Below, piece by piece: positions 40,853 to 58,649 of a DNA stretch of 58,649 bases (positions are counted from its first letter, which is position 1; every line of letters starts with the position of its first letter). Below the pieces are notes generated by a model. That model was not told the DNA's origin. It saw nothing but the letters and a program-made list of their open reading frames with translations, and did no database searches. Source of the stretch: Candidatus Omnitrophota bacterium (lineage in GTDB: Bacteria; Omnitrophota; Gorgyraeia; Gygaellales; Profunditerraquicolaceae); NCBI GenBank assembly GCA_030650425.1, contig JAUSED010000001.1, forward strand, positions 1 to 58,649, in the 5' to 3' direction. The position numbers and the translations under genes were made by a program.

Positions 40853-40861
40853 GGAGAACAT

Positions 40862-42820: not shown

Positions 42821-42825
42821 GAGGA

Positions 42826-42854: not shown

Positions 42855-42871
42855 TTAATAGAGGTATTATT

Positions 42872-43051
42872 ATGGAGGGAAAGAAAGGGGAAAGCCGCGG
42901 TTATCTTAATGGCCAGAGCTTAGTAGAGTATTTTATCCTTTTTGCTATTCTGGCGGGTTTATCTTTGTTTCTGCTTTCGCCGCAAAATCCTAAAAATATT
43001 CCGGCTATGTTTAGCAGTTATGTTTCAACAGCCACGGAAAAAATGAAATGA
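42872..43051 (+). CDS. Flp-type prepilin-like protein 1
   Basis: G/QSLVEY followed by the hydrophobic helix FILFAILAGLSLFLL. Start moved to the ATG at 42872 because the track start lies inside the promoter. Confidence 0.65.
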   Translation: MEGKKGESRGYLNGQSLVEYFILFAILAGLSLFLLSPQNPKNIPAMFSSYVSTATEKMK

Positions 43052-43245
43052 AGATAGATAATAACAAGGCCCAGAACGTGTTAGAATATACGATGCTGAT
43101 CATTATCGCTGCCGCGGCATTGGTAGCGATGACTACCTATATTATGCGTTCGATGAACGCCCGGATTATGCAGACGAATGACGAACTGAATTATTACCGG
43201 CTGGAAGATACAGCTAAAGCAGATGTGGCGAGTCAAATAAAATAA
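43048..43245 (+). CDS. Flp-type prepilin-like protein 2
   Basis: A/QNVLEY then TMLIIIAAAALVAMTTYI. Overlaps the stop of pilin 1. Confidence 0.6.
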   Translation: MKIDNNKAQNVLEYTMLIIIAAAALVAMTTYIMRSMNARIMQTNDELNYYRLEDTAKADVASQIK

Positions 43246-43259
43246 CGGGAGGAAACGAG

Positions 43260-43430
43260 ATGAAAAGATTAAACAGAGGGCAGAGCACGTTAGAGTATGT
43301 GATTATTTTGGCTGCCGTGGTCGGCGCCATCATTCTTGTCGCGACTACAGTGCTTAAACCAAAGCTTCAGACCTCTTACACTGATCTTACCGGTAAGATG
43401 CAAGACAAGGTAAAAGAGGTTAATTTTTAA
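43260..43430 (+). CDS. Flp-type prepilin 3 (56 aa, absent from the ORF track); candidate major pilin
   Basis: My translation: MKRLNRGQSTLEYVIILAAVVGAIILVATTVLKPKLQTSYTDLTGKMQDKVKEVNF. GGGAGG lies 8 nt upstream. Canonical G/XXXXEY and classic Flp size. Confidence 0.8.
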   Translation: MKRLNRGQSTLEYVIILAAVVGAIILVATTVLKPKLQTSYTDLTGKMQDKVKEVNF

Positions 43431-43444
43431 TAGAGGAGGAGAAA

Positions 43445-43783
43445 ATGTGGAAAATAAATAAGAAAGGCCAGAGCACCGCGGAATACGCCATCGTTATAGG
43501 TTTGGTTGTTGCCGCGATAGTGGCGATGCAAATCTATGTCAAGCGCGGATTGCAGGGTAAGGTTAAGGACGCGGTAGATTATAAGGATGCAGGTGACACG
43601 GTTACAGGCACGACCACGCAATATGAGCCTTATTATTCCAGTTCTACGATGACTTCTACTAGGGCAGCATCGGAGAAGGCCGAGGTTACTACCGGCGGCG
43701 GAGTGACTAGAACAATCTCAGGGGAAGATATTTCTACGCGCACCGGCAGCCAGACAATCGGGGCGGCGCAGTCGAGCAAGTAA
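43445..43783 (+). CDS. Extended Flp-type prepilin paralog 4 (T/S-rich tail)
   Basis: KGQSTAEYAIVIGLVVAAIVAMQIYVKRGLQGKVKD. Strong RBS GAGGAGGAG. Confidence 0.75.
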   Translation: MWKINKKGQSTAEYAIVIGLVVAAIVAMQIYVKRGLQGKVKDAVDYKDAGDTVTGTTTQYEPYYSSSTMTSTRAASEKAEVTTGGGVTRTISGEDISTRTGSQTIGAAQSSK

Positions 43784-43799
43784 GTTAAGGAGGAGAGTT

Positions 43800-44105
43800 A
43801 TGTCTAAACGAAATTTACGCGGACAAAGCACGTTGGAGTATGTAATTTTAGCCGGGTTCGTGGTAGCGGCGCTGATTGCCATGGGTGTGTATATGAAGAG
43901 GGGTTTTCAGGGCAGGTTAAGGGAATCTACAGATCAGGTTGGGCAGCAATATTCTGCCGAGCATACTACTTCAACCTACACTACGAGGACCGATGTAGCG
44001 CAAACCGAAACGTTGAATGCCTCAGGCATCACTACGACTAATATTACCAAAAATACGCAGAGTAGAACCGGCAGTGAAAAAGTCGAAGGTTTAAGTGCGA
44101 AATAA
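43800..44105 (+). CDS. Extended Flp-type prepilin paralog 5
   Basis: RGQSTLEYVILAGFVVAALIAMGVYMKRGFQGRLRE. RBS AAGGAGGAG. Confidence 0.75.
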   Translation: MSKRNLRGQSTLEYVILAGFVVAALIAMGVYMKRGFQGRLRESTDQVGQQYSAEHTTSTYTTRTDVAQTETLNASGITTTNITKNTQSRTGSEKVEGLSAK

Positions 44106-44118
44106 TCAGGCGGTAAAG

Positions 44119-44472
44119 ATGCGCCGGGGACAATCCACCTTAGAATATATCTTTTTTATCGCTATGCTGGCAGCCGCGTTGATCGCGATGTTGGTTTATA
44201 TGAAACGCGGGTTTGAGGGAAACTGGCGGCAGCTTTCAGAGCAGGTTGGCGCTGGAAGCTATGACCCAAAAAACACCACGATCAACAATACGGAAACCAA
44301 GCACACCGAAGCCAAGGTTACCTCTTCTTCTACCAGCACAGTTACTTTTGGCGCTGACGGCAGCTCAACCACCATTGATACCAGCGCGAATACTGAAACT
44401 GGCAGAGCTACCGTGGATCGCTCAACAAGCGAGAGCGTGGGAAATTTGTCCGGCGACACTTGGCACAATTAA
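44119..44472 (+). CDS. Extended Flp-type prepilin paralog 6
   Basis: MRRGQSTLEYIFFIAMLAAALIAMLVYMKRGFEGNWRQ. The ATG at 44119 is preferred over the GTG at 44095. Confidence 0.7.
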   Translation: MRRGQSTLEYIFFIAMLAAALIAMLVYMKRGFEGNWRQLSEQVGAGSYDPKNTTINNTETKHTEAKVTSSSTSTVTFGADGSSTTIDTSANTETGRATVDRSTSESVGNLSGDTWHN

Positions 44473-44473
44473 A

Positions 44474-44809
44474 ATGAGAAGCATGTTTACCAAAAAAGGG
44501 CAGAATCTGACCGAGATAGCCTTACTTATTGGCATAGTAGGGTTAGTTTTAATCGGAATGGAGGTGTATGCCCGGCGTGGAATTCAGGGCAAAGTTAAAG
44601 ACCTTACCGATAACATGCTCGGTAAGGAGCAGGCAACTTATCAACAGGATACCTCAGGCTTGGCAGTGAATACGTCGGAGAGTTCATTTGTTTCTAGTTC
44701 AACAGCGACAATCTCTGAAAGGCCGGGTGGTTCAAAAGCAGTGTTCATTCCTAATGAACACTCAGAGACGAGCTATACCTATGAAAGCAGCAGTTCCTTA
44801 GCCAAGTAG
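44474..44809 (+). CDS. Extended Flp-type prepilin paralog 7
   Basis: KGQNLTEIALLIGIVGLVLIGMEVYARRGIQGKVKD. This is the 3' part of track ORF 44213-44809; the upstream part overlaps paralog 6 out of frame. Confidence 0.7.
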   Translation: MRSMFTKKGQNLTEIALLIGIVGLVLIGMEVYARRGIQGKVKDLTDNMLGKEQATYQQDTSGLAVNTSESSFVSSSTATISERPGGSKAVFIPNEHSETSYTYESSSSLAK

Positions 44810-44821
44810 CGAGGTAAAAAA

Positions 44822-45481
44822 ATGTTAGTCAACAGGAAGGCCCAGACGATCACGGAGTTGGCGGTATTAGGCTCGTTGATTATTGTGGCTTTTGCTTTCT
44901 TAATTAATTACAGCGAAAAAATTAACCGTCAGCAGGCTTATCTCCAGCAAACCTTTCGGCTGGCGTTAAAGGAAGCCAAGAATGCCAATAATTCCGCGTC
45001 TTATAATAAGGTTGTCTTTAACCGGATGCCCAATGTATCTAATCCGATGGAGCTGGGCCAAGTGCAGTCTTTTAGTAATAGTTCTAATGTTTTGTGGGCA
45101 GATGGAAAGAACAGGAATCCCGACGGCACGCCAAAGGATGGTGTATCCAAATACCAGCTTAATGAGGCCTCTGCGATAGATGTGCCGATAACCAAAAGCC
45201 AAAACCCGCCGGCTAGCGGAACAACTGCAACCAGTACGAATACTTTTACTAACACCGTAAATACCACGACTACTTTTGTGAAAAATGAAACTCCCGGTGG
45301 AATAATTACTACCACCAAGACCCTCAATGCCACAGATACCTTAGATGCCACTGTAACCGTTGGCACTAACCCACAGACTTTTACGCATAAGTTAGGGGGT
45401 GGTTCTCTAGAGGAAGGAGGAGGAGGTAAGTATTATCCGGACAATTCAAAGACTTTGGAGCGCACAAGGAGTATGCAATAA
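44822..45481 (+). CDS. TadE/TadF-like pseudopilin
   Basis: RKAQTITELAVLGSLIIVAFAFLI N-terminus. T/N-rich C-terminal part. Confidence 0.55.
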   Translation: MLVNRKAQTITELAVLGSLIIVAFAFLINYSEKINRQQAYLQQTFRLALKEAKNANNSASYNKVVFNRMPNVSNPMELGQVQSFSNSSNVLWADGKNRNPDGTPKDGVSKYQLNEASAIDVPITKSQNPPASGTTATSTNTFTNTVNTTTTFVKNETPGGIITTTKTLNATDTLDATVTVGTNPQTFTHKLGGGSLEEGGGGKYYPDNSKTLERTRSMQ

Positions 45482-46395
45482 TGCGGGCAATGACGCGAGG
45501 CCAGGCAACGCTGGAATTTACGCTAGTCTTTATAGTAATGGCAGTGTTGCTGATAGGTTTACTGAGTTTGTGGAAGTGGTCTAGCGATAACATTGTTAAG
45601 CGTCAGCTAAGCTATAATGCCAGCCGAGCGCAGGAAGGTTCGCGTTCGGCTGGTTTATCGCAAGGTACCGCCGCGCTCCCTGCGTTGACAGATAAAGATA
45701 AACAGTCTCTCTTAGATACTCTGCAAGCGGAGTCTGATTCTTTCCCATCGTTGTCTTTAGATCAGCTAACTGCTGATTTAGAAAGGACGGATAAGGCTAT
45801 CCAAGATCTGCAAGCCAGCCTGTCTACTCTGGTAGGCTTCAGGGATGGTTGGCAAAAGGATTTTGAAGATGCCCAACAGGCAGAGGCGGACAGCCAACAA
45901 AAAATCGATGCCTTAAAGGCTCAGATAGCCTCGCTTGAAGAGCAAAAACTAAATCCGCAAACAGCAGGTTATGATGAATCCGGGCAGCTGATCTATGTAG
46001 ATTATGACGGGCAAATTAATGCGTTGAATCAAGAAATAGCCAAAACCCAAAACGGCTATTACACTATTGAAACCACCTCTTGGAATGAGAGTGGTCCTAC
46101 AACGGTCGCTACTTATGACTACTCTAATACGCAATGGATGAGTAGATTTGGCACAAGGGAGGAATGGGCCAAGGATTATTCGATCTACCATCAGTACGGG
46201 GCTTCCGAAGGAAGCGCTACCGGGCTGTATGCCAATTATACTCCCGGCCTGCTTGACTGGCAGGCAAGGAAAGATTACGCCCAGCAGCAAAGAGATACTT
46301 TTCAATCTAGCGTAACTAGCACCGCAAGCGTCTTATCTGGGATGCAAGATATGCAGAGTAAGCTTCAGAAAGCGAAGGAGAGTAAGTCCCAGTAA
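45481..46395 (+). CDS. TadE-like pseudopilin with coiled-coil extension
   Basis: RGQATLEFTLVFIVMAVLLIGLL (TadE-type motif), followed by a Q/E/A-rich coiled coil. Confidence 0.6.
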   Translation: MRAMTRGQATLEFTLVFIVMAVLLIGLLSLWKWSSDNIVKRQLSYNASRAQEGSRSAGLSQGTAALPALTDKDKQSLLDTLQAESDSFPSLSLDQLTADLERTDKAIQDLQASLSTLVGFRDGWQKDFEDAQQAEADSQQKIDALKAQIASLEEQKLNPQTAGYDESGQLIYVDYDGQINALNQEIAKTQNGYYTIETTSWNESGPTTVATYDYSNTQWMSRFGTREEWAKDYSIYHQYGASEGSATGLYANYTPGLLDWQARKDYAQQQRDTFQSSVTSTASVLSGMQDMQSKLQKAKESKSQ

Positions 46396-46406
46396 TAGGG
46401 GATAGT

Positions 46407-46460
46407 AGTAGGGGACATTTTCCTACACGCGTTTACTAGCTGTTGGAAAGTGTCCCCTAC
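46407..46460. repeat. REP-B-related element between the pseudopilin genes
   Basis: AGTAGGGGACATTTTCCTACACGCGTTTACTAGC..GGAAAGTGTCCCCTAC. Confidence 0.8.
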
Positions 46461-46485
46461 TTGCCCTACTTGAAACGGAGGCAAT

Positions 46486-48102
46486 TTGTTTTTTTTCTGG
46501 TTCACAAAAAATAAGCAGTTTAGCCAAAGAAGCAATCTCTCAGGCCAGATTGTTCCTTTTTTGCTGGTGGTTTTAGTCATTCTGCTGGTTGCTGCTGTTG
46601 CTACTATTAACATTGGCAGGGTTTCTTTGGATAAGACCTGCTCGGCAAATGCCGCGGATGCCGGCGCGCTTGCCGCTGCTTCGGCCTGGGCCTCGGCGTT
46701 TAATACGCTCACCGAAATCAACGGGGATCCGACACCAGGAGGCTTGGAGTATAGTTATGATCTGAATTATTCTGCTTATACCCTACTTAAGGCTGAGGCA
46801 GACCAACATTTAAAAGAAGCAATGAAGAAGGCTGAAGAAGCCAGCGCATACGCAGCCGCAGCGCTTGGGAGTGGGAGCGTATTGCCGGGAAGCGTATTAC
46901 CAGAAAAAGATCTGCCAGATTGTATCTCTATTTGGTATAGAGGTATAGCAGCTGCTACTGCGGATAGCCTGGGTGCTTTGGCTGCCCTTGACGCTTCTAT
47001 CGCAACGAAGGCTTTTGGTATGACTATTCAATATATGCAGTCACTGACAGATTCTTTTTATGAGCAGCAACAGAAGACTTTTTGCGATGCAGTAGCCTTT
47101 ATGGACAGTTCTTATATTGACGCCCGCAAAACCGGGCTAACTTATGCTTTTAATAACAGCTGTATACCGAATAAGCTTTCCGAGAGCCAAACTGACGCGT
47201 TTAGCATTTGGGGGGGTTCAGAAACCGCTTATGGCAAGGAGGGCGACTCTTTTTTTGGAACTGAGTATAAGCTTGATGATGAAGGCAGGTATACCAGAAA
47301 ATGCGAATGGAAGGATAAATTAAACCAAACGCATATTGTTAATGCCAAACTGGATTTACCCAAAATAACCTCTTATGAACTTCAGCATACTCAGGGTAAT
47401 TATTCGCAGATCAGCGCTCTATTAGACGATTTGATCAGCGATTCGCAGTCAATTTCCGACAAGTTAAATAGTACTGCGGGTGTCTTGGGCGCAACAGCAG
47501 CCGCGTATATAGCTACTTTTGTAGCTAGTATAGTTGCCTTTGCAGCTTCTTTTTGTAAAGATTCATATCCATATAATTGTTTTCCTGCATGGATGGCTGC
47601 GTGTAAAGTGACTTGGTGGTTGTATGATGGCGCGCATTTATCCCAAAGCGTTATAGTCGCTGGGCTTACAATTATTCTTGGAGTTGTGGCAGCAGTTTCC
47701 TTGGGTTCACTAAAATCCGATAATAATACAGCCTATGATTATTGGGGTCCGGATGGGAACCAATCCCTTGCCACTTGTCTTACCTGCGCGCCTTGTAAGA
47801 GTGACGCGCCTGAGCATTGTAAACCTTGCTGGGAGGCGAAAGACCTGATGATTAAGAAGATTAACGACGTAATCTTAACTAAAGACGCAAGCTGGCCTAC
47901 CAAAGACTGGACTACTCTTTGCACAACAACCCAGAAGCATCCCGGAACAAGCTCAGGTATTATTTTGGCTACTGAATATCCGGAGATAACCAGCAGCAGC
48001 CGGGCGAAATTTGATGTTGGAAATAGGGATGCTGGAGATGAGGGTAGAGACGTGGGTGACTATAACGATACTTATGACGCGAGCATAGTGCATACGAACT
48101 AG
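46486..48102 (+). CDS. TadG-like protein (Tad_N-type N-terminus, Cys-rich C-terminal region)
   Basis: SGQIVPFLLVVLVILLVAAVATINIGRVSLDKTCSANAADAGALAAASA matches the TadG N-terminal pattern. TTG start 5 nt after GGAGG. C-terminal CLTCAPCKSDAPEHCKPC. Confidence 0.6.
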   Translation: MFFFWFTKNKQFSQRSNLSGQIVPFLLVVLVILLVAAVATINIGRVSLDKTCSANAADAGALAAASAWASAFNTLTEINGDPTPGGLEYSYDLNYSAYTLLKAEADQHLKEAMKKAEEASAYAAAALGSGSVLPGSVLPEKDLPDCISIWYRGIAAATADSLGALAALDASIATKAFGMTIQYMQSLTDSFYEQQQKTFCDAVAFMDSSYIDARKTGLTYAFNNSCIPNKLSESQTDAFSIWGGSETAYGKEGDSFFGTEYKLDDEGRYTRKCEWKDKLNQTHIVNAKLDLPKITSYELQHTQGNYSQISALLDDLISDSQSISDKLNSTAGVLGATAAAYIATFVASIVAFAASFCKDSYPYNCFPAWMAACKVTWWLYDGAHLSQSVIVAGLTIILGVVAAVSLGSLKSDNNTAYDYWGPDGNQSLATCLTCAPCKSDAPEHCKPCWEAKDLMIKKINDVILTKDASWPTKDWTTLCTTTQKHPGTSSGIILATEYPEITSSSRAKFDVGNRDAGDEGRDVGDYNDTYDASIVHTN

Positions 48103-48110
48103 TGAAAAAA

Positions 48111-48151
48111 GAAAAGGTGACAGTCACGCATTTCGTGACTGTCACCTTTTC
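48111..48151 (+). terminator. Long palindromic hairpin (about 17-bp stem)
   Basis: GAAAAGGTGACAGTCACG-CATT-CGTGACTGTCACCTTTTC. Confidence 0.5.
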
Positions 48152-48167
48152 CTGAAAAGGAGATGCG

Positions 48168-48938
48168 ATGAAAAAAATTATCTGCACAATTTTATTTTTT
48201 GCATTTGTGTCTTTTGGTTCCTTAACTTGGGCCGCTGAATCAGACTTACCTTTGCCCGCTAACGCTGTCAAGACTACGGAACAGAGTATGAATATTGGGC
48301 CTATTCCAAGCGTTACGCAAACTTACGAAACCTCTCTGAATAACAACGATAAGATAAGCGCATTTTATAGTAAGGCGTTAGCGCGCCTTGGTTGGCGTGA
48401 AGAAAGCAGAGGGTTTTTCTTAAAAGATGATTATATGGTTCTGATTGTCGTTTTTCCGCGTAAGGGCAAAGATATCAAGACGCGGTTTTCTATCACCACC
48501 AGTAGGATACCGACTAAAGAAGAAATATTGGCGCAGCGCAAAACTAAACCGGACAAGTTAGATTTTATGCCGATTTATCCCGGGAGTGAACAGGTTTTTC
48601 TTTGGGATATGCCGACAGGTCTTTCCGCTTCCTACGAAACAAAAAGCGATATAAAAGATGTGGTTTTCTTTTACAAATCTGGTATGCTTAATTATGGCTG
48701 GAGCTTGAGCAGTGAAGCGCCGATAACTACAGAAGCAGTTAATTGTCCGGAGTGCCTTAAAGCGCTGGTTCAGCTTCCTAAAGATGCGATTAAGCCTGTT
48801 ACCCCGGATACCTCTAGTAAAGCGAGCCTCATCTTTCGCAAAGGGAGCGGAGAGAGCTGTACCATAAGGCTTTATCAGAGTATGGATAAAACCACAATTT
48901 TAGTCACTTATAATGCGAATAAAAAAATTAACCTATAA
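48168..48938 (+). CDS. Exported hypothetical protein with an internal two-module duplication
   Basis: Signal peptide FFAFVSFGSLTWA-AE. Repeated pattern (..ISAFYSKALARLGWREES.. and ..VVFFYKSGMLNYGWSLSSE..). Confidence 0.5.
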   Translation: MKKIICTILFFAFVSFGSLTWAAESDLPLPANAVKTTEQSMNIGPIPSVTQTYETSLNNNDKISAFYSKALARLGWREESRGFFLKDDYMVLIVVFPRKGKDIKTRFSITTSRIPTKEEILAQRKTKPDKLDFMPIYPGSEQVFLWDMPTGLSASYETKSDIKDVVFFYKSGMLNYGWSLSSEAPITTEAVNCPECLKALVQLPKDAIKPVTPDTSSKASLIFRKGSGESCTIRLYQSMDKTTILVTYNANKKINL

Positions 48939-49206
48939 TGAAAAAGGGGACGGTTCTATTTTCAAGATTGGTAGGGGAGGTTTAAACCTCCCCTACCCTA
49001 GAAAAATAGAACCGTCTCATTTTTTCGCTAAAGCTCAGTCGATTCTAGAATATATAACCATCATTGCCGTGATTGCCGCTGTGTTTATCGCGATGGGAGC
49101 GTATTATAAAAGGAGCCTGCAGGCCCGTTACCGTCAAGCGGGGGATGTCTTAGGCGGCGGAGAACAATATACTCCTGTTGCTAACGCGCCGACATTAGGT
49201 AAGTAA
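48913..49206 (+). CDS. Flp-type prepilin paralog 8 with a palindromic repeat inside its leader-coding region (start uncertain; possible pseudogene)
   Basis: AKAQSILEYITIIAVIAAVFIAMGAYYKRSLQARYRQ is clearly paralogous to pilins 4-7. The only in-frame canonical start upstream is the ATG at 48913, so the leader would read through repeat 48947-49017. Confidence 0.5.
   Translation: MRIKKLTYNEKGDGSIFKIGRGGLNLPYPRKIEPSHFFAKAQSILEYITIIAVIAAVFIAMGAYYKRSLQARYRQAGDVLGGGEQYTPVANAPTLGK
48947..49017. repeat. Nested palindromic element
   Basis: GGGACGGTTCTATTTT..GTAGGGGAGGTTTAAACCTCCCCTAC..AAAATAGAACCGTCTC. Confidence 0.8.
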
Positions 49207-49214
49207 AACAAAAG

Positions 49215-50060
49215 ATGATTATAATAATTAGTCTTTTCATTATCCTTTCCGTAGTTTTAATTGCCTGGAGCGCCTTTCCTCTCTTTTTGAAGCCGATAGA
49301 AAGCTGGCGGCAGGAAAAAGAAGCCAAGGTCGCTCAACAGATGGATCAGATGTTTTATGATAAGAGCCCCAAGGCGATTGTCCGGCTCTATTTTATTCTT
49401 CCGATTCTCTTTGGCGCGGCAGGATATTTTATTCTCCAGTCTTATATCCCAGTGGTTATCGGGATTGTTTTAGGTCTAGCCATACCTAACTTAATCTTAA
49501 AGATACGTTTAGCCCGCCGGAAACAGAAATTTAATGATCAGCTTTTGGATACTATTACCATGCTCTCCAGCTGTTTAAAAGGCGGTTTAAGTCTTTTACA
49601 GGGATTTGAGGTTTTGGTAGAAGAGATGCCCGCGCCGATGAATCAGGAACTTGGCTTATTGCTTAAGGAGAACAAAATGGGTGTGCCCTTTGAAGAGAGC
49701 TTGGTTCGCTTAAATAAAAGGATGGATATCGAAGAACTGGGGTTGGTAGTCAACGCGCTCTTAGTTTCCCGGGAGACCGGCGGAGAGCTGACCAAGGTCT
49801 TTAGCCGCCTGACCACGACGATTAGGGATAACCGTAAGCTCAAAGAAAGCATTAAGACCTTGACTATGCAGGGAAGATTACAGGGCGCGATTATGTCGCT
49901 CCTTCCGATTTTGTTTGTTATTTGGGTACTTTCAGTGGACAAGCATCATTTTGATATCATGCTGACCAGCGATATAGGCAGGATGCTTTTGGTGTTGGCG
50001 GTGGTATTACAGGTGGTGGGGATGTTTTTAATCCGTAAATTTAGCATAATCAAGATTTAA
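49215..50060 (+). CDS. tadB: Tad inner-membrane platform protein TadB (T2SS-F family)
   Basis: QLLDTITMLSSCLKGGLSLLQGFEVLVEEMPAPMNQELGLL, with flanking TM segments. Confidence 0.8.
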   Translation: MIIIISLFIILSVVLIAWSAFPLFLKPIESWRQEKEAKVAQQMDQMFYDKSPKAIVRLYFILPILFGAAGYFILQSYIPVVIGIVLGLAIPNLILKIRLARRKQKFNDQLLDTITMLSSCLKGGLSLLQGFEVLVEEMPAPMNQELGLLLKENKMGVPFEESLVRLNKRMDIEELGLVVNALLVSRETGGELTKVFSRLTTTIRDNRKLKESIKTLTMQGRLQGAIMSLLPILFVIWVLSVDKHHFDIMLTSDIGRMLLVLAVVLQVVGMFLIRKFSIIKI

Positions 50061-50062
50061 AT

Positions 50063-50920
50063 ATGGATATACTGATTTATCTTTTAATCATTCTGGCGTT
50101 GGGCCTGATTGTTTGGAGTTTAGTCCTCTCCCAACAAGGCAGGAGCACGCGTCTTCCCCCGTTAAACGTTAACCTTAAGCGGACCAGGCCGCATATTCTT
50201 TTATCAAGCATTCTTCCGACGAGAGGTTTGCTTGAGAAAACAGGTATCTTTGCCAGAATAAAAAGAAAAATCGACGCGGGGCATTTAAATATCAGCCCGG
50301 AGGGATTCTTTAATTTAAAAATATTGATTATGGCGGTTTTAGCCGCGCTTACGCCGGTTGCCTTGGGCAAGGTTGATCCCATATATATATTGGTTGCTTT
50401 AGTTATCGGGTATATCGCCCCGGAATTTTATCTAAGACAAAGGATTGCCAAACGTAAGTATCAAATCGTCCGTCGGCTTCCGGAGACAGTGGATCTTTTA
50501 GGCCTTTGCATCGAAGCCGGCCTGGATTTTTCCAGTGCCGTCAGGTGGGTGATTGATAAGACCCCTCCAACTCCCATTAATGAGGAGTTTAGCCTTGTTT
50601 TAGAAGAGATCAAATGGGGTAAGCCGCGCATTCAAGCCTTAAAAGACATGTCCAGCAGGCTAGATATACCTGAAGTAAGTTCTTTTGTGCAAACGATTAT
50701 TCAGGCTGAGCGGATGGGTTCTCCGGTTGCCGAGGTCTTTACTATTCTTTCCGAGGATGTCCGGCTGCAAAGGTTTCACCGCGGAGAAAGAATCGCGCTA
50801 CAGGCGCCGATCAAGATACTCCTGCCGCTTATTTTCTTCATTATGCCGGTAATCGGTATCATTATCGGCGGCCCGATCTTCCTGCAATTCACCATGGGCA
50901 AAATGATCCCCGGTTTCTAA
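50063..50920 (+). CDS. tadC: Tad inner-membrane platform protein TadC (T2SS-F family)
   Basis: RRLPETVDLLGLCIEAGLDFSSAVRWV..IKWGKPRIQALKDM, with TM segments at both ends. Confidence 0.8.
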   Translation: MDILIYLLIILALGLIVWSLVLSQQGRSTRLPPLNVNLKRTRPHILLSSILPTRGLLEKTGIFARIKRKIDAGHLNISPEGFFNLKILIMAVLAALTPVALGKVDPIYILVALVIGYIAPEFYLRQRIAKRKYQIVRRLPETVDLLGLCIEAGLDFSSAVRWVIDKTPPTPINEEFSLVLEEIKWGKPRIQALKDMSSRLDIPEVSSFVQTIIQAERMGSPVAEVFTILSEDVRLQRFHRGERIALQAPIKILLPLIFFIMPVIGIIIGGPIFLQFTMGKMIPGF

Positions 50921-51065: not shown

Positions 51066-52235
51066 ATGATTACCCGTTGGATTATTCGCTCAAGCCTTTC
51101 TTTAATAATCCTAGCTCTATCTTCCCCTTCATTATCTGCCGCACCCACAGCCTTAGAAATAGCCGCGCAATTTAATAAATCCAGAGAAGGTTTTGCCAAT
51201 AAATACGGGACGCGGTTTGCCTTTCTTTTTAATTACACCCAGCAGCTCATTTTGAAAAGCAGCTCAGAAAAAGGAAAGAGCGGCGGCGTTGGGTATGGGA
51301 ACTTAGAGTTGGCCCAGAGGCTTTGGCAGGGCGCGGAGTTATTCGCGGAATTTGAAGTGGACCGGGGTAAAGGAGTGGATAAGTTTTTGCCTACCTTCTC
51401 GGGCTTGAATGACAACTCAGGGGAGGATGCCAATCTTTACCTCCCTGTTTTATATATGGACCAAAAACTTTTTGATGAGAAAATATTAATCGGCGCCGGA
51501 AAATTGGATTTATCCTATTGGTTTGATGGTAATGAAGCGGCGAACTCCGCGGATACACAATTTCTATCCAGCGCTTTAGTGAATAGTTTAACTCTTCCTT
51601 TTCCGTCCAAGGGAATAGGCGCGATGGCAAGCTTCGAGCCCTGCGAGTGGGTCTATTTTCAGACAGGGGTAGCTACAGCCAAGGCAAAGTCCACTAAAAC
51701 AGGATTACCTGACGCTTTTAATAGCGCGTTTGTTCTTAATGAATTGGGTTTTACCCCGAAGATTGGGAAATTGCAAGGGAACTACCGTTTTATTTTTAAT
51801 CTCAATCATGAAAAGTTAGAATACGTTAATAAGAGCGATGAAAGCAAAAAAAATGATTTTGGTTTCGCTGTAAGTTTTGATCAGGCGATTACTAAGCGCA
51901 TAACTTTATTTTTGCGCTATGGTTTGGCTGATCCGAAAGTAAGAGACATTGAACATTACTGGTCCTGCGGAGGCCAGCTATCCCAACCTATACCCGGCCG
52001 TAAACTTGACATTCTGGGAATAGGCATAGCCCAATCTATTTTTGGCGATGATTTTCGCGAAGCAAACGGAGAAGATACAGCCAGCCGCGAAACTATTTAC
52101 GAAGCCTACTACAGTTACAATGTAAATGACGCCATCGCCCTAACCCCGAGTATCCAGATAGTCACTGATCCCAATGGCGATAAAACAGCCGAAACTGCAA
52201 TTGTCTGCGGCCTTAGATTTCTTCTTAGTTTTTAG
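51066..52235 (+). CDS. OprB-like carbohydrate-selective porin
   Basis: Signal peptide. LWQGAELFAEFEV..NLYLPVLYMDQKLFDEKILIGAGKLDLSYWFD..DTQFLSSALVNS follows the OprB family pattern as I remember it. C-terminal F (..RFLLSF). Confidence 0.55.
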   Translation: MITRWIIRSSLSLIILALSSPSLSAAPTALEIAAQFNKSREGFANKYGTRFAFLFNYTQQLILKSSSEKGKSGGVGYGNLELAQRLWQGAELFAEFEVDRGKGVDKFLPTFSGLNDNSGEDANLYLPVLYMDQKLFDEKILIGAGKLDLSYWFDGNEAANSADTQFLSSALVNSLTLPFPSKGIGAMASFEPCEWVYFQTGVATAKAKSTKTGLPDAFNSAFVLNELGFTPKIGKLQGNYRFIFNLNHEKLEYVNKSDESKKNDFGFAVSFDQAITKRITLFLRYGLADPKVRDIEHYWSCGGQLSQPIPGRKLDILGIGIAQSIFGDDFREANGEDTASRETIYEAYYSYNVNDAIALTPSIQIVTDPNGDKTAETAIVCGLRFLLSF

Positions 52236-52575: not shown

Positions 52576-52603
52576 TTGACAGCGACGAGCTACGTGTTAT
52601 ACT
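52576..52603 (+). promoter_or_regulatory. Strong sigma70-type promoter with extended -10, about 290 nt upstream of the giant ORF
   Basis: TTGACA (52576-52581), 16 nt, TGtTATACT (-10 at 52598-52603). Confidence 0.6.
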
Positions 52604-52892
52604 TAGAATGTAATCGATGGAAAGGAACGAAATGGCAAACCCAGAGCAATCTGGAGGCGCAAAGCCACGGGTCCTCGATAATTTAAAGCAACGATTTTCA
52701 CAGGATAGCCGGGCTGCCGAATTACCGACGAGGAATTTGACAGTTCGGTTTTTTATTTGTAAGTTTAGTAAGGCATTTTACAAACTCTTTATAAAACAAA
52801 TATGAAAGATTCTCACACGCAATTTGAAAAAGTGCTGGGGGTAAGGGGGAGATTATATTCAATTTCTTTTTCATATAGTAATATAAAATAAA

Positions 52893-55800
52893 ATGATAAA
52901 GCCTAAGATTCAGACAGAAGACAGGGTAGCTGCCAAAAAAGAATCCAAGGAAAAGTTCCATTCCAGCTTTAAGACTTGGATCCGTGTGGTGGCTTTTATC
53001 GTAGCCGCGGTCTTCTTGCCCGAGCAAGTGGCCCAAGCCGTAGAGTATGACTGGCGCGTGCTCTGGAATAAGCCAGCCATCGGCCTTCCTTCCAACAACG
53101 TTTTTAGCCCGAATTACCTTAAAAATGTCCAATCTGTGAATATTCCTCAAGCAGTAAAAAGTATCCTCAAAGATATAGCTAATAAGCCCATAACCGCCAT
53201 CAAAATTTCAGATAATCTGACCATCAATTTGAATAAGCCCTTGAAAATGTCCAATCAGAGGATAGATGAGCTTTATAATTGGCTCTTAGGCAAACCTTGC
53301 GGTTCCAAGGCACTTTATGACTATTTGAATTACAAGGGAATTCAGGTTGAAGAGCAGGACATTGCGGTTTTAGCCCTGACTATAGATATTTTGAATGATG
53401 TGGTCAAGCCGGAAGGTAACCCTAAAGTAATTAAAAATTCCCTTTATGCCTTGTCCAGGACTTCAGCATTCTTCGGCGCCAAGCTTTATCCTGTATCATT
53501 GCGTGATTGCTTCGTCGGGCTTCGCCCTCCTCGCAATGACGAATCCGGTGTCATTGCGAGCGAGCCCACAGGCGAGCGAAGCAATCTCTTAAGCAGCCTA
53601 GTTCCTTTCATCGCTCACCTCAACGGCGACCACTATGTTTTAGTAACCCGTATAAGCGAAGATAAAATTTATTTTAGCGATCAGCACAGAGAAGAGTTTT
53701 TACCCATAGATAAATTTCTTAAAGAATTCTCCGGTTATGCTTTAGTTACTTCCAAAGATTTACCGCCAATTTCGGATAACGAAGCTAAAACTATTTTAGG
53801 CGCAAAATCCGATTACTCCTCTGATTGGCATCCTTCCGCGTCTAACGCCCAGATGCAGGCATATTCCAATAAGACGATGGAGAGCTTGCATAGTGAAATC
53901 AAAGCTATGCGCACCCATGCCGAACATCAATTTATCAAGGATATTACTATCAGCGTAGGAAGTTCCTTTGCTATGGCTGCTATATCCAGCTATGCCAAGC
54001 CTTGGTTTAACACCAAATCTACCGGAGTCGGCTCTAAGGTTTTAGGTTTAGGCCCTACTGCCAGATGGGCGATCACCGGAGCGGTTGCCGGAACTGCGGT
54101 ACACGGCCTGACCACCGGGCAATGGTTTAAAGGCAATTGGTATCTTTACACTGCTGGAGGTGCGGCAGCAGGAGCGGCAGTGCCTTCTGTAGCGCAAGCT
54201 TGGAATACACAGGGTTCATGGCTTTCTCCGGTTAGGAAAGCCACTGATTCTTTTAAGAGTTCTATTAATGGTGCTTTTGGAGGAACGCCTGATCTTGCGC
54301 AATCACCTTGGGAATTTCCGCGCCCGAGCCTTGGCACAACGGCACAACTGGATGTTACAGCCCCGGGTTTATTTAGTAACCTCGGGGGTGTGGGCCATGG
54401 TATGTTTAATGCCGGAGTAGTTACGCTCACCTCGAATATATTTTCATTAGCCGGAATGAAGCCACAACAAACAGAGTTACTTTCCGCATTTACTAGCGGC
54501 GCATTATTGGGGATGGTCGGCGGGCTGGGAAATATGACCAATGGCCTGCAATGGTATCAGGCAGGCATCAGCGGAGGCCTTTCTAATTTAACCAGCACTT
54601 ATGTTACTAGCTTAGCCACAGAGCAATTAAGCATCAAGAGCCCTGCTCTGGCTAAGTTTATTGGTGATACCGCAGGCCTAGCTACCAGTGTCCTTGTTAA
54701 TGGGGCCTTCTATTCTCTGAATGGCCAGTCCATAGATATGGCCAGTCCTAAAATTAAAATTGGTTTACCAGCTGATTTAGGAACCGGTGATAAGATCTTG
54801 AAGGCAGGCATTGGAACCTATGGCGAGTATATCTGGAATAATAGCTGGCGAGGGTGGACTGCAAGTTTAGTTGGCAACGGAGTAGCCGAGATAATTACCC
54901 GGAATCCTAAGCTTATCGGCCTAACGGCTAAAGACCTTGAGACTATGCCCTATGCCAGCGCTATCGGACAGGGGATTACCAGCGGTTTTGGTTCAGCATT
55001 TAAAAATGATACGTTCATCCAGAGTATTTCTAAGGGCCTATTAACCAGCGCCTTGACCATCGGTGAAGCCAAGATAGAAGCTGATATGCTCAAACATAAC
55101 CCCCGGATGACCCCGGTTATGTCCGCGTATTTAATTGATGCCGGCACCGCCGCATTCAGAGGTTTTATGGAAGGTTTTCTTTCTCCTACGGTAACCGAAA
55201 GTATCCGCAATCAGAAATTAGATATCAACAACCAGACCTTTGAACCCGATTCCGCGGCCATAGGGTTTTTTACGCGCACTTTTAACGCGTTAGAAACGGA
55301 TGGTTTAAACGCTTCTAGTTTTGGATATACAGGCCGTGAGCTAAGCGCGTTTGGAGAAATATCCTATATGCATACTTTGACTGCTACTTTTGGGCCGACG
55401 ACTCCAGAGATACTTAGGCAGCAAATGGCTAAGGGTGCGTTTCAGGGAACAGCAGTAGGTGAAGGTTCTACGGTAAATGTAGCCTTAAGCGATGGCACGT
55501 TGGTGCCGCTTACGCTTTCTGATGCTTCCAAGTCAAATCTAAATGGTTCTACCATAATTCCTTTCATGGGGACACAGCCGCGCAAAGATCTTACGTACAC
55601 AGATATAGGCGGTAATAAATGGACGAGTAACGGTGACGGCACATATGCATTACAATCCGTGAAGAAGCAAGAGGGGAGTTTTATCGCCGGATGGGCCCAG
55701 ATCGCCCATGATAGTTACCAGTCTGGCGCGGTAAGAAATATGGTAGGGACAATCGCGGTTATACCTGCTGCCCGCGAATTCTTACATTTGCCGGTTAGCT

Positions 55801-58649
55801 TTATGACGCATTACAAAGACGCCAAGGGAGATATTCAAGATGGAAGTTTGGTATTAGAGAGAACTAATTTTACCGATAAATTAGCTACAACCAGCCTGCG
55901 GACTTTAAGTATATCGGATAACTTCGGTAATCCCGTATTTAGTCAGACTACCCAGAATCAGAGGGTTATTGATGAGGGCAAGATTAAATCCTTCTCCGCG
56001 ATCAGCGCTAACTATTGGGCTAAAGGAGAGGGTTTTATAAGCAGGACGGAAAATTTCTATTATGACAAGAATACCAAACAATTTATGTCCAATAGCTTGG
56101 TGACTACTCAAGCGGGGACGACTACTGTAAACGGTTTAGCCGGCACGACTTTTAGCAAAGATTATCAGAGTGAGTTACAGCTTAGCGCTCAATTTTTACA
56201 AGCCAACGGTATTTCCACCTCTGTTGGCGACGGGAAGATCTATTTACCCGGTAAACCAATGCAAGGAGTTCAACTGTTGGTAGGAGGAACACTGCTGCTT
56301 TCTCCGCAAGATGGAAAATTGCAATCCAGCGTGGTAGTGAATAATGATAATGGAAAACTAAAGGTTAGCGGCTGGGCGTATCATTCGGATAATCCATATT
56401 TTAATAATATCGGCGTTAATGGAGTAAGCTATACCAATAAGAATTTAGCCGATGCCGAGAAAGCATTACAATCTGGTAACACTGGATCTGGTAAATCCAA
56501 AGATGCGGATAGCGATGATTCATCCGGCGGCAGTTATAATGTTACCAAAGATAGCAACACGCTCATTTTTAATTTAAATCGCGACAAAGATGCCGCGCGT
56601 ATTACTCCTGATGGCGGTCTTGTGATGGGAGAGGGTGATAGAGTACGTTATGATAGTGGCACGCTTACTGGTATAGGCAGCAATGTAGGCAATCAAGCAT
56701 TTAAAATATCGGCTGATGCAGACAATGGAGAGGCAATAATTGGCGCCTTGGGGGTAGGGAGAACAGGCAAGGGGGTAGGGCTTATTCCTCTTACCGGTAG
56801 ATGGGATATTAGTAGTTCTGGACAAACAAATATTAATAATGGCCAGACTGTGTTTACGGGGAATCAAGTCTCCGTATTAAATAATATTCCACTTATAAAG
56901 GATTCATCCGCAGGATTTATAATCGAACATGCTAAATTGTTTGGTTCTGGCTATCAAGGTAGTTATGTTGTTTCAGCTATTGCACAGGGAGAATATTTAT
57001 TAACCTTAACCAATAATGGTGAGAGCTGGGTCCCGCACTGGCAAGACAAGGGTTTAATTACCTCTATAGATTTGACTACCAAAGAAAGCCAGAGTAATCC
57101 AATTGATTTGATCGATAGGGCGAAAAACGGTACGGCTGAGGCTTTGGCCAGCCGGATGACCTATTTCTCTCAGGTAATGCCTAATGGAGCTAATACGAAT
57201 GAAAAAGATGCTGAAGCCGAACAGCATAACCTACCTGCTGCGCAACCCGGATCAGCAAATTCTACTACACCGATTACAAAATGGAATACAGGGGAAAGCG
57301 GAGCTGGCTTTGAATCTGTTTCCACTAATGGTATACAGCACGCCTTTGATTTAAATGGATTAGCGCTGAATCCGACGGCTGCTAACAGCGTAAATGTTTC
57401 ATCGATGTTTAATAACGCGGAACATACGTTCGTGAATAATTATGCGAAAAGCGCGTTTACTTCCGGCGTGCAGCTGGATGATAAGGGTAATGTAACGGGG
57501 CGAATGATTGCCGCTATCCCGCTTAACGAAGGCTCATTAGCCGGTAAAACAGTTCAATTAAATGATCACGGATTTGTTATTACAGGTGGATTTAAGTCGG
57601 GGTGGAGAAGTATAAATGCAAACGGGTCGTTCTTTAAAACTTTGATAGGTGACGATAAAGATAATGTTGCTTTAGACAAAGCTGGGCTAGAGAACGTTAG
57701 CTTCTGGGTGGCAAATGGTGGAGCAAAATTCTTGAATTTCAGCATCGGCGTATTAACATTAGAGGGAAACAAGTATACCAAAAATAATGGCTTAGTTTTT
57801 GGAGTGGCAGAGAACGTTCAAGGCGGGGCTGCTCCATATCTTGCTGTGGTTCCAGACAATCCTTTGATTTTGACTCAAACCAAAAAACCATCGACTGTAC
57901 TTGACGAAAATCTCGATAATCAATTAAGCGGAGATAGAGCAAATGAATTATTGGGGCGCCAAGAGATTGTTAATAAATTACCCACAGAGTATAACGCAGC
58001 TAAAGATGAAGGGTATAAAGTTCTTCAGGAAACCTTTGCTAAAACTTATGCTCCTAATTCGACCTTAAATCTTTATTTAAATCCTAATAATGGTGTAATT
58101 TACGCAGACGGTACTCAGCGAGTCAATGTATTGATATCTAACTTAAATTCTACCAACGCAGCACTTTCAGGAGATTTCCGTAACACTACATTTGGGATGA
58201 ATTCTTTCGGAAGAAAGGATTATATTGCTACTACAGTATTTTTAGATGATAAACAGAATGTATCTTTTACCAAAGGTATCTTTAAGAACGACTCCGCAGG
58301 CGGCGTAGTGCAGACGGATTATTTAGGCAGGGTTACTACTGATAAAGCAGGGATATATGTAGGTAATCCCAAGAATCGCGTAGATGCCGCCTTGCAGTCA
58401 GCGAAAAGAAGTGAAATAGGTAGAGTAGTTGATTCAACCGTTATCCTTAAAGATTACTATTATAAAGCAGTAATAGGCAAAGAAGGCGCGATTGAGAAGA
58501 TCCTCGAAGGTAAAGCCGGTCAGCTGGTGATAGACGGTAAGAACGCTTTAAGCCAAGGTGACCATGACTTATCCAGCGGCATACTCAAGACCGTAACCGG
58601 GGAAACGCTCTCCTTAATCGCCTCTCCTGCTAAATTAAATAATCTTGAA
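52893..58649 (+). CDS. 5' part of a giant ORF (at least 1919 codons, no stop before the window end): N-terminal membrane anchor, C39-like cysteine peptidase domain, Gly/Ala-rich hydrophobic region, long T/N/G-rich beta-type region
   Basis: I read the frame from the ATG at 52893 codon by codon to 58649 (5757 nt = 1919 codons) and saw no in-frame stop. It is missing from the ORF track, presumably because no stop is reached, and only short antisense ORFs are listed there. TM: WIRVVAFIVAAVFLPEQVAQA. C39-like: GKPCGSKALYDYL (Cys at 53298-53300) ... VPFIAHLNGDHYVLVTRI (His at 53631-53633). Confidence 0.8.
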   Translation, partial: MIKPKIQTEDRVAAKKESKEKFHSSFKTWIRVVAFIVAAVFLPEQVAQAVEYDWRVLWNKPAIGLPSNNVFSPNYLKNVQSVNIPQAVKSILKDIANKPITAIKISDNLTINLNKPLKMSNQRIDELYNWLLGKPCGSKALYDYLNYKGIQVEEQDIAVLALTIDILNDVVKPEGNPKVIKNSLYALSRTSAFFGAKLYPVSLRDCFVGLRPPRNDESGVIASEPTGERSNLLSSLVPFIAHLNGDHYVLVTRISEDKIYFSDQHREEFLPIDKFLKEFSGYALVTSKDLPPISDNEAKTILGAKSDYSSDWHPSASNAQMQAYSNKTMESLHSEIKAMRTHAEHQFIKDITISVGSSFAMAAISSYAKPWFNTKSTGVGSKVLGLGPTARWAITGAVAGTAVHGLTTGQWFKGNWYLYTAGGAAAGAAVPSVAQAWNTQGSWLSPVRKATDSFKSSINGAFGGTPDLAQSPWEFPRPSLGTTAQLDVTAPGLFSNLGGVGHGMFNAGVVTLTSNIFSLAGMKPQQTELLSAFTSGALLGMVGGLGNMTNGLQWYQAGISGGLSNLTSTYVTSLATEQLSIKSPALAKFIGDTAGLATSVLVNGAFYSLNGQSIDMASPKIKIGLPADLGTGDKILKAGIGTYGEYIWNNSWRGWTASLVGNGVAEIITRNPKLIGLTAKDLETMPYASAIGQGITSGFGSAFKNDTFIQSISKGLLTSALTIGEAKIEADMLKHNPRMTPVMSAYLIDAGTAAFRGFMEGFLSPTVTESIRNQKLDINNQTFEPDSAAIGFFTRTFNALETDGLNASSFGYTGRELSAFGEISYMHTLTATFGPTTPEILRQQMAKGAFQGTAVGEGSTVNVALSDGTLVPLTLSDASKSNLNGSTIIPFMGTQPRKDLTYTDIGGNKWTSNGDGTYALQSVKKQEGSFIAGWAQIAHDSYQSGAVRNMVGTIAVIPAAREFLHLPVSFMTHYKDAKGDIQDGSLVLERTNFTDKLATTSLRTLSISDNFGNPVFSQTTQNQRVIDEGKIKSFSAISANYWAKGEGFISRTENFYYDKNTKQFMSNSLVTTQAGTTTVNGLAGTTFSKDYQSELQLSAQFLQANGISTSVGDGKIYLPGKPMQGVQLLVGGTLLLSPQDGKLQSSVVVNNDNGKLKVSGWAYHSDNPYFNNIGVNGVSYTNKNLADAEKALQSGNTGSGKSKDADSDDSSGGSYNVTKDSNTLIFNLNRDKDAARITPDGGLVMGEGDRVRYDSGTLTGIGSNVGNQAFKISADADNGEAIIGALGVGRTGKGVGLIPLTGRWDISSSGQTNINNGQTVFTGNQVSVLNNIPLIKDSSAGFIIEHAKLFGSGYQGSYVVSAIAQGEYLLTLTNNGESWVPHWQDKGLITSIDLTTKESQSNPIDLIDRAKNGTAEALASRMTYFSQVMPNGANTNEKDAEAEQHNLPAAQPGSANSTTPITKWNTGESGAGFESVSTNGIQHAFDLNGLALNPTAANSVNVSSMFNNAEHTFVNNYAKSAFTSGVQLDDKGNVTGRMIAAIPLNEGSLAGKTVQLNDHGFVITGGFKSGWRSINANGSFFKTLIGDDKDNVALDKAGLENVSFWVANGGAKFLNFSIGVLTLEGNKYTKNNGLVFGVAENVQGGAAPYLAVVPDNPLILTQTKKPSTVLDENLDNQLSGDRANELLGRQEIVNKLPTEYNAAKDEGYKVLQETFAKTYAPNSTLNLYLNPNNGVIYADGTQRVNVLISNLNSTNAALSGDFRNTTFGMNSFGRKDYIATTVFLDDKQNVSFTKGIFKNDSAGGVVQTDYLGRVTTDKAGIYVGNPKNRVDAALQSAKRSEIGRVVDSTVILKDYYYKAVIGKEGAIEKILEGKAGQLVIDGKNALSQGDHDLSSGILKTVTGETLSLIASPAKLNNLE
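53123..53257 (+). promoter_or_regulatory. Two copies of the 13-nt motif inside the giant ORF, in two different reading frames
   Basis: 53123-53135 AAATGTCCAATCT (read as K-N-V-Q-S). 53245-53257 AAATGTCCAATCA (read as K-M-S-N-Q), with flanking CCCTTGAAA shared with the copy at 40771-40789. Confidence 0.65.
53493..53588. repeat. REP-A inverted pair inserted in frame inside the C39-like domain of the giant ORF
   Basis: GTATCATTGCGTGATTGCTTCGTCGGGCTTCGCCCTCCTCGCAATGAC-GAATCCGGT-GTCATTGCGAGCGAGCCCACAGGCGAGCGAAGCAATCTC. 96 nt = 32 codons (VSLRDCFVGLRPPRNDESGVIASEPTGERSNL), no stop. Confidence 0.85.

Follow-up and report, generated by a model that had tools for sequence, protein, structure and literature searches.

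How are the giant proteins of the Omnitrophota switched on, exported and processed? Giant genes are a recently recognised oddity of these tiny predatory bacteria, and their regulation, export and processing have stayed open because the organisms are uncultured or available only in enrichments. The question is raised by a stretch of DNA from a Candidatus Omnitrophota bacterium (assembly GCA_030650425.1, contig JAUSED010000001.1), referred to here as the window. The sole record of the encoded protein is on a contig of 58,649 nt, so that the window is the entire contig. An open reading frame (ORF) of which the first 1,919 codons are present (52893..58649, + strand) is cut by the contig end and almost certainly represents the 5' end of an Omnitrophota giant gene, made up of a conserved head cassette and a hypervariable body. 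This class has already been described and the locus itself adds nothing to the giant-gene catalogue. Its front end, in turn, provides two starting points for experiments that need no culture of the organism: a leader-like candidate cut site behind a peptidase head, and a conserved riboswitch-terminator leader in front of the gene. Both are new, being mentioned in neither of the two giant-gene preprints (bioRxiv 10.1101/2023.11.21.568195; bioRxiv 10.64898/2026.06.07.730766).

Computational translation of positions 52884-58649 yields a TAA codon, two further codons and a methionine, from which the frame stays open over 1,919 sense codons to the last base. An earlier note on this DNA had described a frame open from the ATG at 52893 to the window edge, limited at its 5' side by the in-frame TAA at 52884-52886; translation confirms both points and reveals no missed stop. 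The ATG at 52893 aligns with the start codons of close relatives, and a leader comprising promoter, riboswitch and terminator lies directly 5' of the ORF. The frame is not a chance opening, since at least 138 loci in species-representative genomes share the N-terminal module and both start and leader are conserved. The encoded protein contains only two cysteines, C136 and C206. A phmmer search of the whole protein against PDB sequences gave no match, and an NCBIfam scan of the ORF returned only a meaningless 12-bit match to a peptidase-ABC model.

A candidate cut site behind the head

Directly after a C39 peptidase fold the protein carries a motif that resembles a double-glycine-type leader, I293-S-D-N-E-A-K-T-I-L-G303-A304 (ISDNEAKTILGA, followed by K; 53769..53804, + strand), in which the proposed scissile bond is A304↓K305. 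It is one version of a family motif, [LIV]-[ST]-x-x-[EQ]-A-K-x-[IV]-[LMK]-G-[AS], found at the same place in relatives. Among 36 family proteins four positions show no exception: L, I or V at -12, I or V at -4, G at -2 and A or S at -1 (36/36 each). E or Q at -8 occurs in 35/36, A at -7 in 33/36 and S or T at -11 in 28/36. The same pattern is present in 72 of 73 independent loci.

According to the literature, C39 peptidases cleave after GG, GA or GS, the strict double-glycine leader consensus is LSX2ELX2IXGG, and the peptidase LahT requires L, I, V, M or A at -4, -7 and -12, presented on a helix. The register of the motif is identical to that of the strict consensus. The only two departures, Ala for Leu at -7 and Ala for Gly at -1, fall within the accepted sets. 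In 29 of the 36 proteins a consensus-like pattern occupies this site, and the 65,862 residues searched contain no other instance; a position-specific scoring matrix run over the same residues, which belong to truncated family proteins, detected no other match reaching 12 bits. Cleavage of the giant into many fragments was accordingly rejected, as the bodies searched contain no second motif.

The motif also marks a boundary. Conservation falls from 0.7-0.88 to approximately 0.1 within 20 residues past it, and sequence similarity between family members ends there. The canonical C39 fold terminates at FSGYAL, which corresponds to the aligned end of the LahT150 chain, so that the motif appears as an appended element. 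In the AlphaFold2 model the linker and the motif have a predicted local distance difference test (pLDDT) score of 93-94, with a helix at -9 to -4, and the score drops below 50 from exactly K305 onwards. The motif thus lies inside the giant protein (aa 293-304), C-terminal to the protease, and is not the N-terminal leader of a small exported peptide. Taken together, motif conservation and model make it more likely than not that the head cleaves itself after G303-A304, at A304↓K305. The suggestion of autoprocessing made in the earlier note has therefore gained support and a concrete candidate site, and what was a vague idea about C39 processing becomes a mutational question.

The peptidase head and its signal sequence

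The head domain (aa 50-292; 53040..53768, + strand) is predicted to be a papain-like cysteine peptidase of the C39 type; it has an additional N-terminal subdomain and, at aa ~201-236, a variable insert. Its proposed catalytic residues are C136 (53298-53300), H247 (53631-53633) and D263 (53679-53681), all encoded on the + strand. The Pfam Peptidase_C39 profile (PF03412; MEROPS family C39) scores 30.4 bits against a cut-off of 22, over aa 226-288 only, that is the His half of the domain (positions 65-130 of the 133 in the profile). In a search with a head profile, the match was the structure 6MPZ, the LahT 'double glycine motif protease': dHyvlv is paired with NHFVVL and sd with ND, and the 16-residue His-Asp spacing is identical. 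The AlphaFold2 model of aa 51-324 has a pLDDT of 80 and a predicted template-modelling score of 0.75. The top Foldseek matches of this model are 6MPZ (LahT with leader), 3B79 (C39-like), the structures 4RY2 (PCAT1), 7N87 and 5XE9, and 3K8U (ComA), with a probability of 1.00 and target-normalised TM-scores of 0.65-0.73. C136 and H247 are invariant in the 36 proteins; at the locus level the cysteine is found in 72/73 and the histidine in 73/73. The D263 position is occupied by Asp in most loci and by E, N, S, Q or K in a minority. The earlier assignment of a C39-type domain, with its Cys in GKPCGSKAL (C136) and its His in GDHYVLV (H247), is upheld by the Pfam score, the fold match and the invariance of these residues. 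ABC-transporter domains are absent from the 1,919 aa, as judged with Pfam and NCBIfam, and from relatives of at least 3,000 aa.

The head is preceded by a predicted signal peptide (aa 1-49; 52893..53039, + strand), recognised from hydrophobicity and charge bias: a basic n-region, an h-region spanning I30-L42 and a c-region PEQVAQA, with the predicted cut at A49↓V50. The hydrophobic segment W29-A49 that the earlier note had read as a membrane or signal anchor after a charged N-terminus is indeed present. A stable anchor, on the other hand, is disfavoured by the shortness of the core, 11-13 residues, and by the PEQVAQA that follows it; a cleavable Sec signal peptide cut at A49↓V50 fits the sequence better. 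The signal core is the sole membrane-grade segment of the protein (its best 13-mer at -0.72 kcal/mol), and the charge bias indicates an N-in orientation. A Sec signal peptide would place everything that follows outside the cytoplasm. Other export signals were considered at this N-terminus and rejected: a class III (prepilin) signal, as there is no G↓xxxxE/Y motif, and a Tat signal, as there is no twin arginine.

Conservation around the signal sequence is unusual. Residues 21-58 (within 52893-53066), which include the signal core, PEQVAQA and VEYDWRVLW, are conserved at 0.8-0.88, well beyond usual signal peptides, yet aa 51-65 are unstructured in the AlphaFold2 model. One possibility is that a partner, for instance the Tad-like machinery encoded upstream or a dedicated peptidase, recognises this segment.

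A riboswitch-terminator leader

The giant gene has a dedicated sigma-70-type promoter (52576..52603, + strand) consisting of TTGACA, a 16-nt spacer and TATACT, with a TG before the -10 element (11/12 matches). An equivalent promoter with at least 10/12 matches lies no more than 80 nt upstream of 70 of 76 aptamers, compared with 5/76 in shuffled sequences. Downstream of it, positions 52625..52722 (+ strand) match the c-di-GMP-I-GGC riboswitch aptamer (RF03167, clan CL00126) at 59.5 bits, with a gathering score of 59 and an E-value of 2e-13; c-di-GMP denotes cyclic diguanylate. All seven relatives tested pass the gathering score, at 61-67.5 bits. A covariance model built from these elements yields 79 matches in 83 sources, all on the gene strand. 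Base pairing is preserved in 97.7% of cells, 11 pairs display compensatory changes and 170 cells are changed on both sides; this is matched by 0/500 shuffles, and controls in which the structure was slid collapse, although the alignment was fitted to the model and so leans towards the structure. In 51 of 59 assessable loci the riboswitch is located within 700 nt upstream of the signal-peptide codons. It is very likely, judging from these sequence comparisons, that the riboswitch is genuine. A few loci (L017, L018, L042 and L079) harbour a second copy further upstream.

The aptamer is followed by an expression platform (52707..52758, + strand): an intrinsic terminator hairpin at 52707-48, with a folding energy of about -18 kcal/mol, and a U-run at 52749-58. 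The 3' strand of the aptamer serves as the 5' arm of the terminator hairpin, which leads into UUUUUUAUUU. An overlapping hairpin with a U-run accompanies 41 of 45 analysable aptamers. As aptamer and terminator share a strand, ligand binding should prevent termination, and the predicted mutually exclusive folds mean that the element is probably an ON switch. Adhesin and pilus genes are typical targets of c-di-GMP-I riboswitches. The likeness to this class (GEMM-I, variant RF03167) resides in the score above the gathering threshold, the strong covariation, the position in the 5' leader and the terminator-type platform; the literature searched yielded no established ligand for the GGC variant. 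Nor did it yield a report of this riboswitch in front of giant genes or in Omnitrophota. The leader would tie giant-protein expression to c-di-GMP, and this fits the known pilZ genes and GGDEF domains around and inside giants: one of the two giant-gene preprints (bioRxiv 10.1101/2023.11.21.568195 or bioRxiv 10.64898/2026.06.07.730766) reports pilZ genes downstream and GGDEF domains within the giants.

Proposed mechanism and alternatives

These elements can be assembled into a mechanism. A high level of c-di-GMP would stabilise the aptamer, so that no terminator forms and the giant gene is transcribed. The nascent protein would be threaded through Sec, bringing the head to the periplasmic side. 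There the C39 head would bind the adjoining leader-like helix and cut after G303-A304, either in cis or between molecules, and this cut would separate the variable body and the constant head. Once released, the body might be displayed on the surface or exported, probably via the adjacent Tad/type II secretion system (T2SS)-like secretin machinery, and a displayed body would serve the prey-contact role already proposed for giant proteins. To this mechanism as a whole, from riboswitch through Sec export and self-cleavage to body release, a probability of about 0.6 is assigned. A bolder formulation, to which somewhat less than even odds are given, is that the head is a self-removing export cassette: the first cis-acting C39 peptidase, periplasmic, with a double-glycine leader fused behind it, in a gene gated by a cyclic-dinucleotide riboswitch. 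On this reading Omnitrophota would set the production of their giant predatory proteins by the level of c-di-GMP and the release by self-cleavage, and a constant head with a breakpoint at the cut site would also offer a platform for swapping hypervariable bodies.

Several points weigh against this account. The C39 domains known from peptidase-containing ABC transporters (PCATs) are cytoplasmic and process small peptides, whereas in this protein a signal peptide precedes the domain and the 'leader' sits inside a giant polypeptide. The alanine at -7 is allowed by LahT; it is outside the [MLV] of the BACII-alpha formula, and bacteriocin leaders usually have Leu, Met or Val. In the Cys region pCGskal pairs with ECGAASL of LahT below threshold. 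A Q-C-H motif is described for C39 peptidases (PMC13642728), with the oxyanion-hole Gln a few residues before the Cys; no such Gln is identifiable about 6 residues before C136, where -6 is an invariant Trp and -7 varies (N, D, E, Q, A, S or H), though the head may have a structural equivalent. On the RNA side, the aptamer of the window exceeds the Rfam gathering score by only 0.5 bit, the ON direction derives from predicted mutually exclusive folds, and no ligand for the GGC variant emerged from the literature. Finally, export of the body by the Tad-like system is inferred from the gene neighbourhood alone.

The alternative that survives best, although unlikely, is that the C39 head acts in trans on proteins of the cell or of the prey, the motif being an autoinhibitory pseudo-substrate or an uncut structural latch. 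The conserved catalytic residues are compatible with such a role, West-Roberts et al. leave other substrates open (bioRxiv 10.1101/2023.11.21.568195), and the motif, which the model docks with confidence, could equally be a substrate or a latch that stays uncleaved. Against this reading, the invariant small residues at -2 and -1 and the exact leader register are what a scissile site requires, and homology breaks off precisely there, in line with head and body being distinct functional units. Moreover, the 65,862 family residues contain no other leader-like motif, and neither a PCAT transporter nor a small double-glycine peptide gene is seen in the window.

A second alternative concerns the body (aa 305-1919 and beyond; 53805..58649, + strand), in which small-residue-rich predicted helices at aa ~350-850 (53940-55442) are followed by mixed beta structure. 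It has been suggested that its Gly-rich block forms multiple membrane segments and that beta-solenoid or adhesin-type repeats follow; with an N-terminal transmembrane (TM) helix as anchor, this would make the protein a multi-pass membrane region continued by a repeat adhesin. The G/A/S/T-rich block is present as the earlier note had it, at aa ~350-800. It is hydrophobic and rich in small residues, the frequency of small-xxx-small motifs in aa 351-800 is 2-3 times that of the remaining body, many TM regions are reported for giant proteins as a class (bioRxiv 10.1101/2023.11.21.568195), and beta-strands are predicted from about aa 850. Against membrane segments, Kyte-Doolittle and Hessa scans with a positive control reveal no TM-grade window after the signal peptide: no 19-residue window of the block falls below +4.7 kcal/mol (Hessa), compared with 0.6-2.8 for true TM segments of a relative, and in the closest long relative the first TM-grade window appears only at aa 4370. 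Against a solenoid or adhesin, self-BLAST detects no internal repeats, Pfam no known domain, adhesin- or solenoid-type domains included, and Foldseek with the body model no fold match (best E 0.79). That model (aa 394-1023, built on a shallow alignment) has a pLDDT of 59 and poor between-model agreement; it tentatively renders the block as long helices (aa ~493-848), with strands only from about aa 850 in the modelled part. Both suggestions about the body have accordingly lost ground, and a membrane-embedded repeat adhesin is improbable. Among 1.84 billion representative proteins only 11 are related to aa 305-1504. Patches of the body match other family members at differing positions, which makes it a mosaic.

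Less probable still is a head without catalytic activity, a C39-like domain serving to tether or chaperone the unfolded giant during export in the manner of that of HlyB. The missing oxyanion Gln would suit this role, the C39-like domain 3B79 is among the top fold matches, and the HlyB precedent is cited by West-Roberts et al. (bioRxiv 10.1101/2023.11.21.568195). The residues of the active site speak against it: known C39-like domains such as that of HlyB lack the catalytic Cys, while here Cys and His are invariant in 36 proteins and nearly so or fully across loci (72/73 and 73/73), and the Asp, occasionally replaced by another residue, is at the expected spacing. An artefact of assembly or gene calling, which might be suspected because the ORF stops at the contig edge and some relatives are broken by stops, has a negligible likelihood given that dozens of independent assemblies show this head with an open frame of at least 3,600 codons behind it and that start, promoter, riboswitch and terminator are all conserved.

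Comparison with other systems

The C39 domains of PCATs and of ABC transporters for maturation and secretion (AMS) (LahT, 6MPZ; PCAT1, 4RY2/6V9Z; ComA, 3K8U) share with the head the fold, the Cys, His and Asp residues and the His-Asp spacing, and their substrates share with the adjoining motif G at -2, A or S at -1 and a helix that bears hydrophobic residues at -4, -7 and -12. The head differs from them in not being fused to an ABC transporter, in its predicted periplasmic rather than cytoplasmic location after a signal peptide, and in having its 'leader' C-terminal to the protease in the same giant polypeptide. It also possesses an extra N-terminal subdomain and a variable insert, and lacks an evident oxyanion Gln.

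The LapA/LapG/LapD system of Pseudomonas fluorescens and its relatives (bioRxiv 10.1101/198937; PMC10990149) likewise combines a giant surface protein, a periplasmic cysteine protease acting near its N-terminus and control by c-di-GMP. In contrast, LapG is a protein of its own and belongs to another protease family, c-di-GMP exerts its effect via the LapD protein and not through RNA, secretion is of type I, and the adhesin is released by cleavage at low c-di-GMP. The resemblance is one of analogy only, not homology.

A third comparison is offered by the releasing peptidases of polymorphic toxins, of multifunctional autoprocessing repeats-in-toxin (MARTX) proteins and of large clostridial toxins (Zhang et al. 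2012, PMC3482391). These too pair an unchanging peptidase module with variable cargo that recombines, and the cargo is proposed to be set free by autoproteolysis while it is exported or afterwards. The domains used are different, namely HINT, ZU5, PrsW, caspase-like and other papain-like ones, and C39-related domains are listed as toxin domains (Tox-PLC39) and not as N-terminal releasing heads. No toxin domain was found in the giant ORF.

The giant-gene family

The C39-headed class, which belongs with the 'Archaeovorin'-type giant proteins, and its Tad/T2SS-like upstream locus were described by West-Roberts et al. 2023 (bioRxiv 10.1101/2023.11.21.568195), who reported N-terminal C39 domains beside signal peptides in giant genes and left open whether these 'may cleave other protein substrates'. 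In their account a secretion system comprising more than 10 subunits is encoded ahead of the giant genes, with gspD/E/F-like genes, rcpC, a Rotamase_2 peptidyl-prolyl isomerase (PPIase) and small genes with class III signals. A 2026 preprint (bioRxiv 10.64898/2026.06.07.730766) lists a PF03412 architecture cluster with Tad/T2SS flanks among long Omnitrophota proteins. The present ORF agrees with this class in its phylum, in the N-terminal signal peptide followed by C39, in N-terminal kilobases otherwise devoid of known domains, and in the preceding secretion locus of more than 10 genes, which includes a Rotamase_2 PPIase, RcpC, a secretin, GspE/F-like proteins and pilins with class III signals. 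It differs in that only 1,919 codons are known here, so that giant size (at least about 20 kb or 7,000 aa) is seen only in relatives. The earlier note had recognised neither this class nor the Tad-like locus nor the riboswitch.

A first search returned 35 homologues, all from Candidatus Omnitrophota/Omnitrophica and mostly annotated as 'cysteine peptidase family C39 domain-containing protein, partial'. They measure 1,064-3,357 aa, usually truncated by contig ends, and with most of them the common part is only the first ~15-23% of the query. The count of at least 138 loci encoding the N-terminal module derives from GTDB with one genome per species. The 80 retrieved loci are almost all from Omnitrophota, and the few other labels most likely reflect mislabelled or mis-binned sequences. 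A search with a profile of the head alone, carried out for the length distribution, returned mostly short fragments at contig edges. Head, riboswitch and motif together constitute a precise marker for fragmented giant genes in metagenomes.

As regards length, 69 of the 73 parsed ORFs are open to the end of the retrieved DNA (at least about 3,600 aa wherever 10 kb was available) and four end at 1,704-3,558 aa. The closest relative with a long record reaches at least 5,208 aa and is itself truncated. On a 307-kb contig (L084) the head ORF and an ORF of 14,858 aa are in the same frame with one in-frame TAA (11441-11443) between them, which implies a gene of more than 15,000 codons. Pfam detects C39 only, or nothing, in relatives of 3,000-3,357 aa. 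Numerous TM regions and a divergent SecA-DEAD domain are features of the class; in the first 1,919 aa of the present protein Pfam and a hydrophobicity scan give neither a SecA-DEAD domain nor TM-grade segments beyond the signal peptide, the later part of the gene lying beyond the contig.

The TAA of L084 falls ~180 codons after the cut-site motif. In another locus (L011) several stops at 11075-11305 separate the head from a 2,377-aa ORF in the same frame. These in-frame stops could be due to sequencing errors, decay or recoding. Stand-alone heads on long contigs were considered as a separate category and rejected, as they are giant genes interrupted in frame. Some Omnitrophota genomes contain two head-bearing genes (L034/L051, L037/L054, L041/L052 and L008/L076).

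The upstream locus and other features of the window

A Tad/T2SS-like secretion-pilus locus (34772..50920, + strand) is identified from Pfam matches, pilin N-termini and its agreement with the West-Roberts locus. All its genes are on the + strand. It begins with a Rotamase_2 PPIase (34772-35728) and RcpC (35728-36636), both assigned with Pfam, as are the two unusual fusions that follow: a secretin with a C-terminal TonB_C tail (36633-38267), and a ParA/TadZ-like ATPase joined to a TadA (T2SSE) ATPase in a single 718-aa protein (38269-40425). Next comes a 652-aa protein (40862-42820) with a long Glu/Lys/Ala-rich coiled-coil-like stretch and no Pfam match, which is found at the same position in 13 of 45 related loci. 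Six tandem small genes for Flp-type pilins (42836-44472), with G↓QSTLEY-like processing sites in their N-termini, precede TadE-like (45481-46395) and TadG-like (46486-48102) genes, and the locus closes with TadB (T2SSF; 49215-50060) and TadC (T2SSF; 50063-50920), these last four again recognised with Pfam. The Tad/Flp components present are therefore RcpC, the secretin, TadZ/TadA, TadB, TadC, the Flp pilins and the TadE/G pseudopilins. A prepilin peptidase of the Peptidase_A24 family (TadV/CpaA) has no Pfam match in those genes of the locus that were scanned, a search that took in neither small ORFs nor the remainder of the genome. Processing of the Flp pilins by the C39 head was considered and rejected, as the -2 residue of the pilins is R, K or N and not G.

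Between this locus and the giant gene is a gene for an OprB-family carbohydrate-selective porin (51066..52235, + strand; Pfam OprB, E 7.5e-35). Among 45 relatives with enough DNA upstream of the head gene TadC is encoded in 37 and TadB in 34, OprB in only 4; the porin is thus not a conserved neighbour, although it is present in the closest relative (L083). Outside the giant gene and the Tad-like locus the window is occupied by chromosomal housekeeping genes.

A dispersed palindromic element, composed of AGGGGACACTTTCC, a spacer of ~27 nt and GGAAAGTGTCCCCT, is located in intergenic regions at 52258-52517 and also at 30485-30573, 46411-46457 and 50931-51003. Its 13-mer occurs 16 times, with 0.96 occurrences expected, and two full units lie just 5' of the giant-gene promoter. 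The element looks like a repetitive extragenic palindromic (REP) sequence or a miniature inverted-repeat transposable element (MITE). An ORF in the same region, 'orf111' (52351-52686, 111 codons), was rejected as a gene: it covers repeats, promoter and riboswitch, and its tblastn 'homologues' are due to conserved non-coding RNA and DNA.

Two further features are found elsewhere in the window. An EF-G-like protein of 1,012 aa (9751-12789, + strand) has a GTPase domain that begins at aa 321, after an N-terminal extension of ~320 aa without a Pfam match. A 6S (SsrS) RNA (8285-8447, + strand; 75.2 bits) is situated between a pheT-like gene and a gene for an MgsA-like ATPase.

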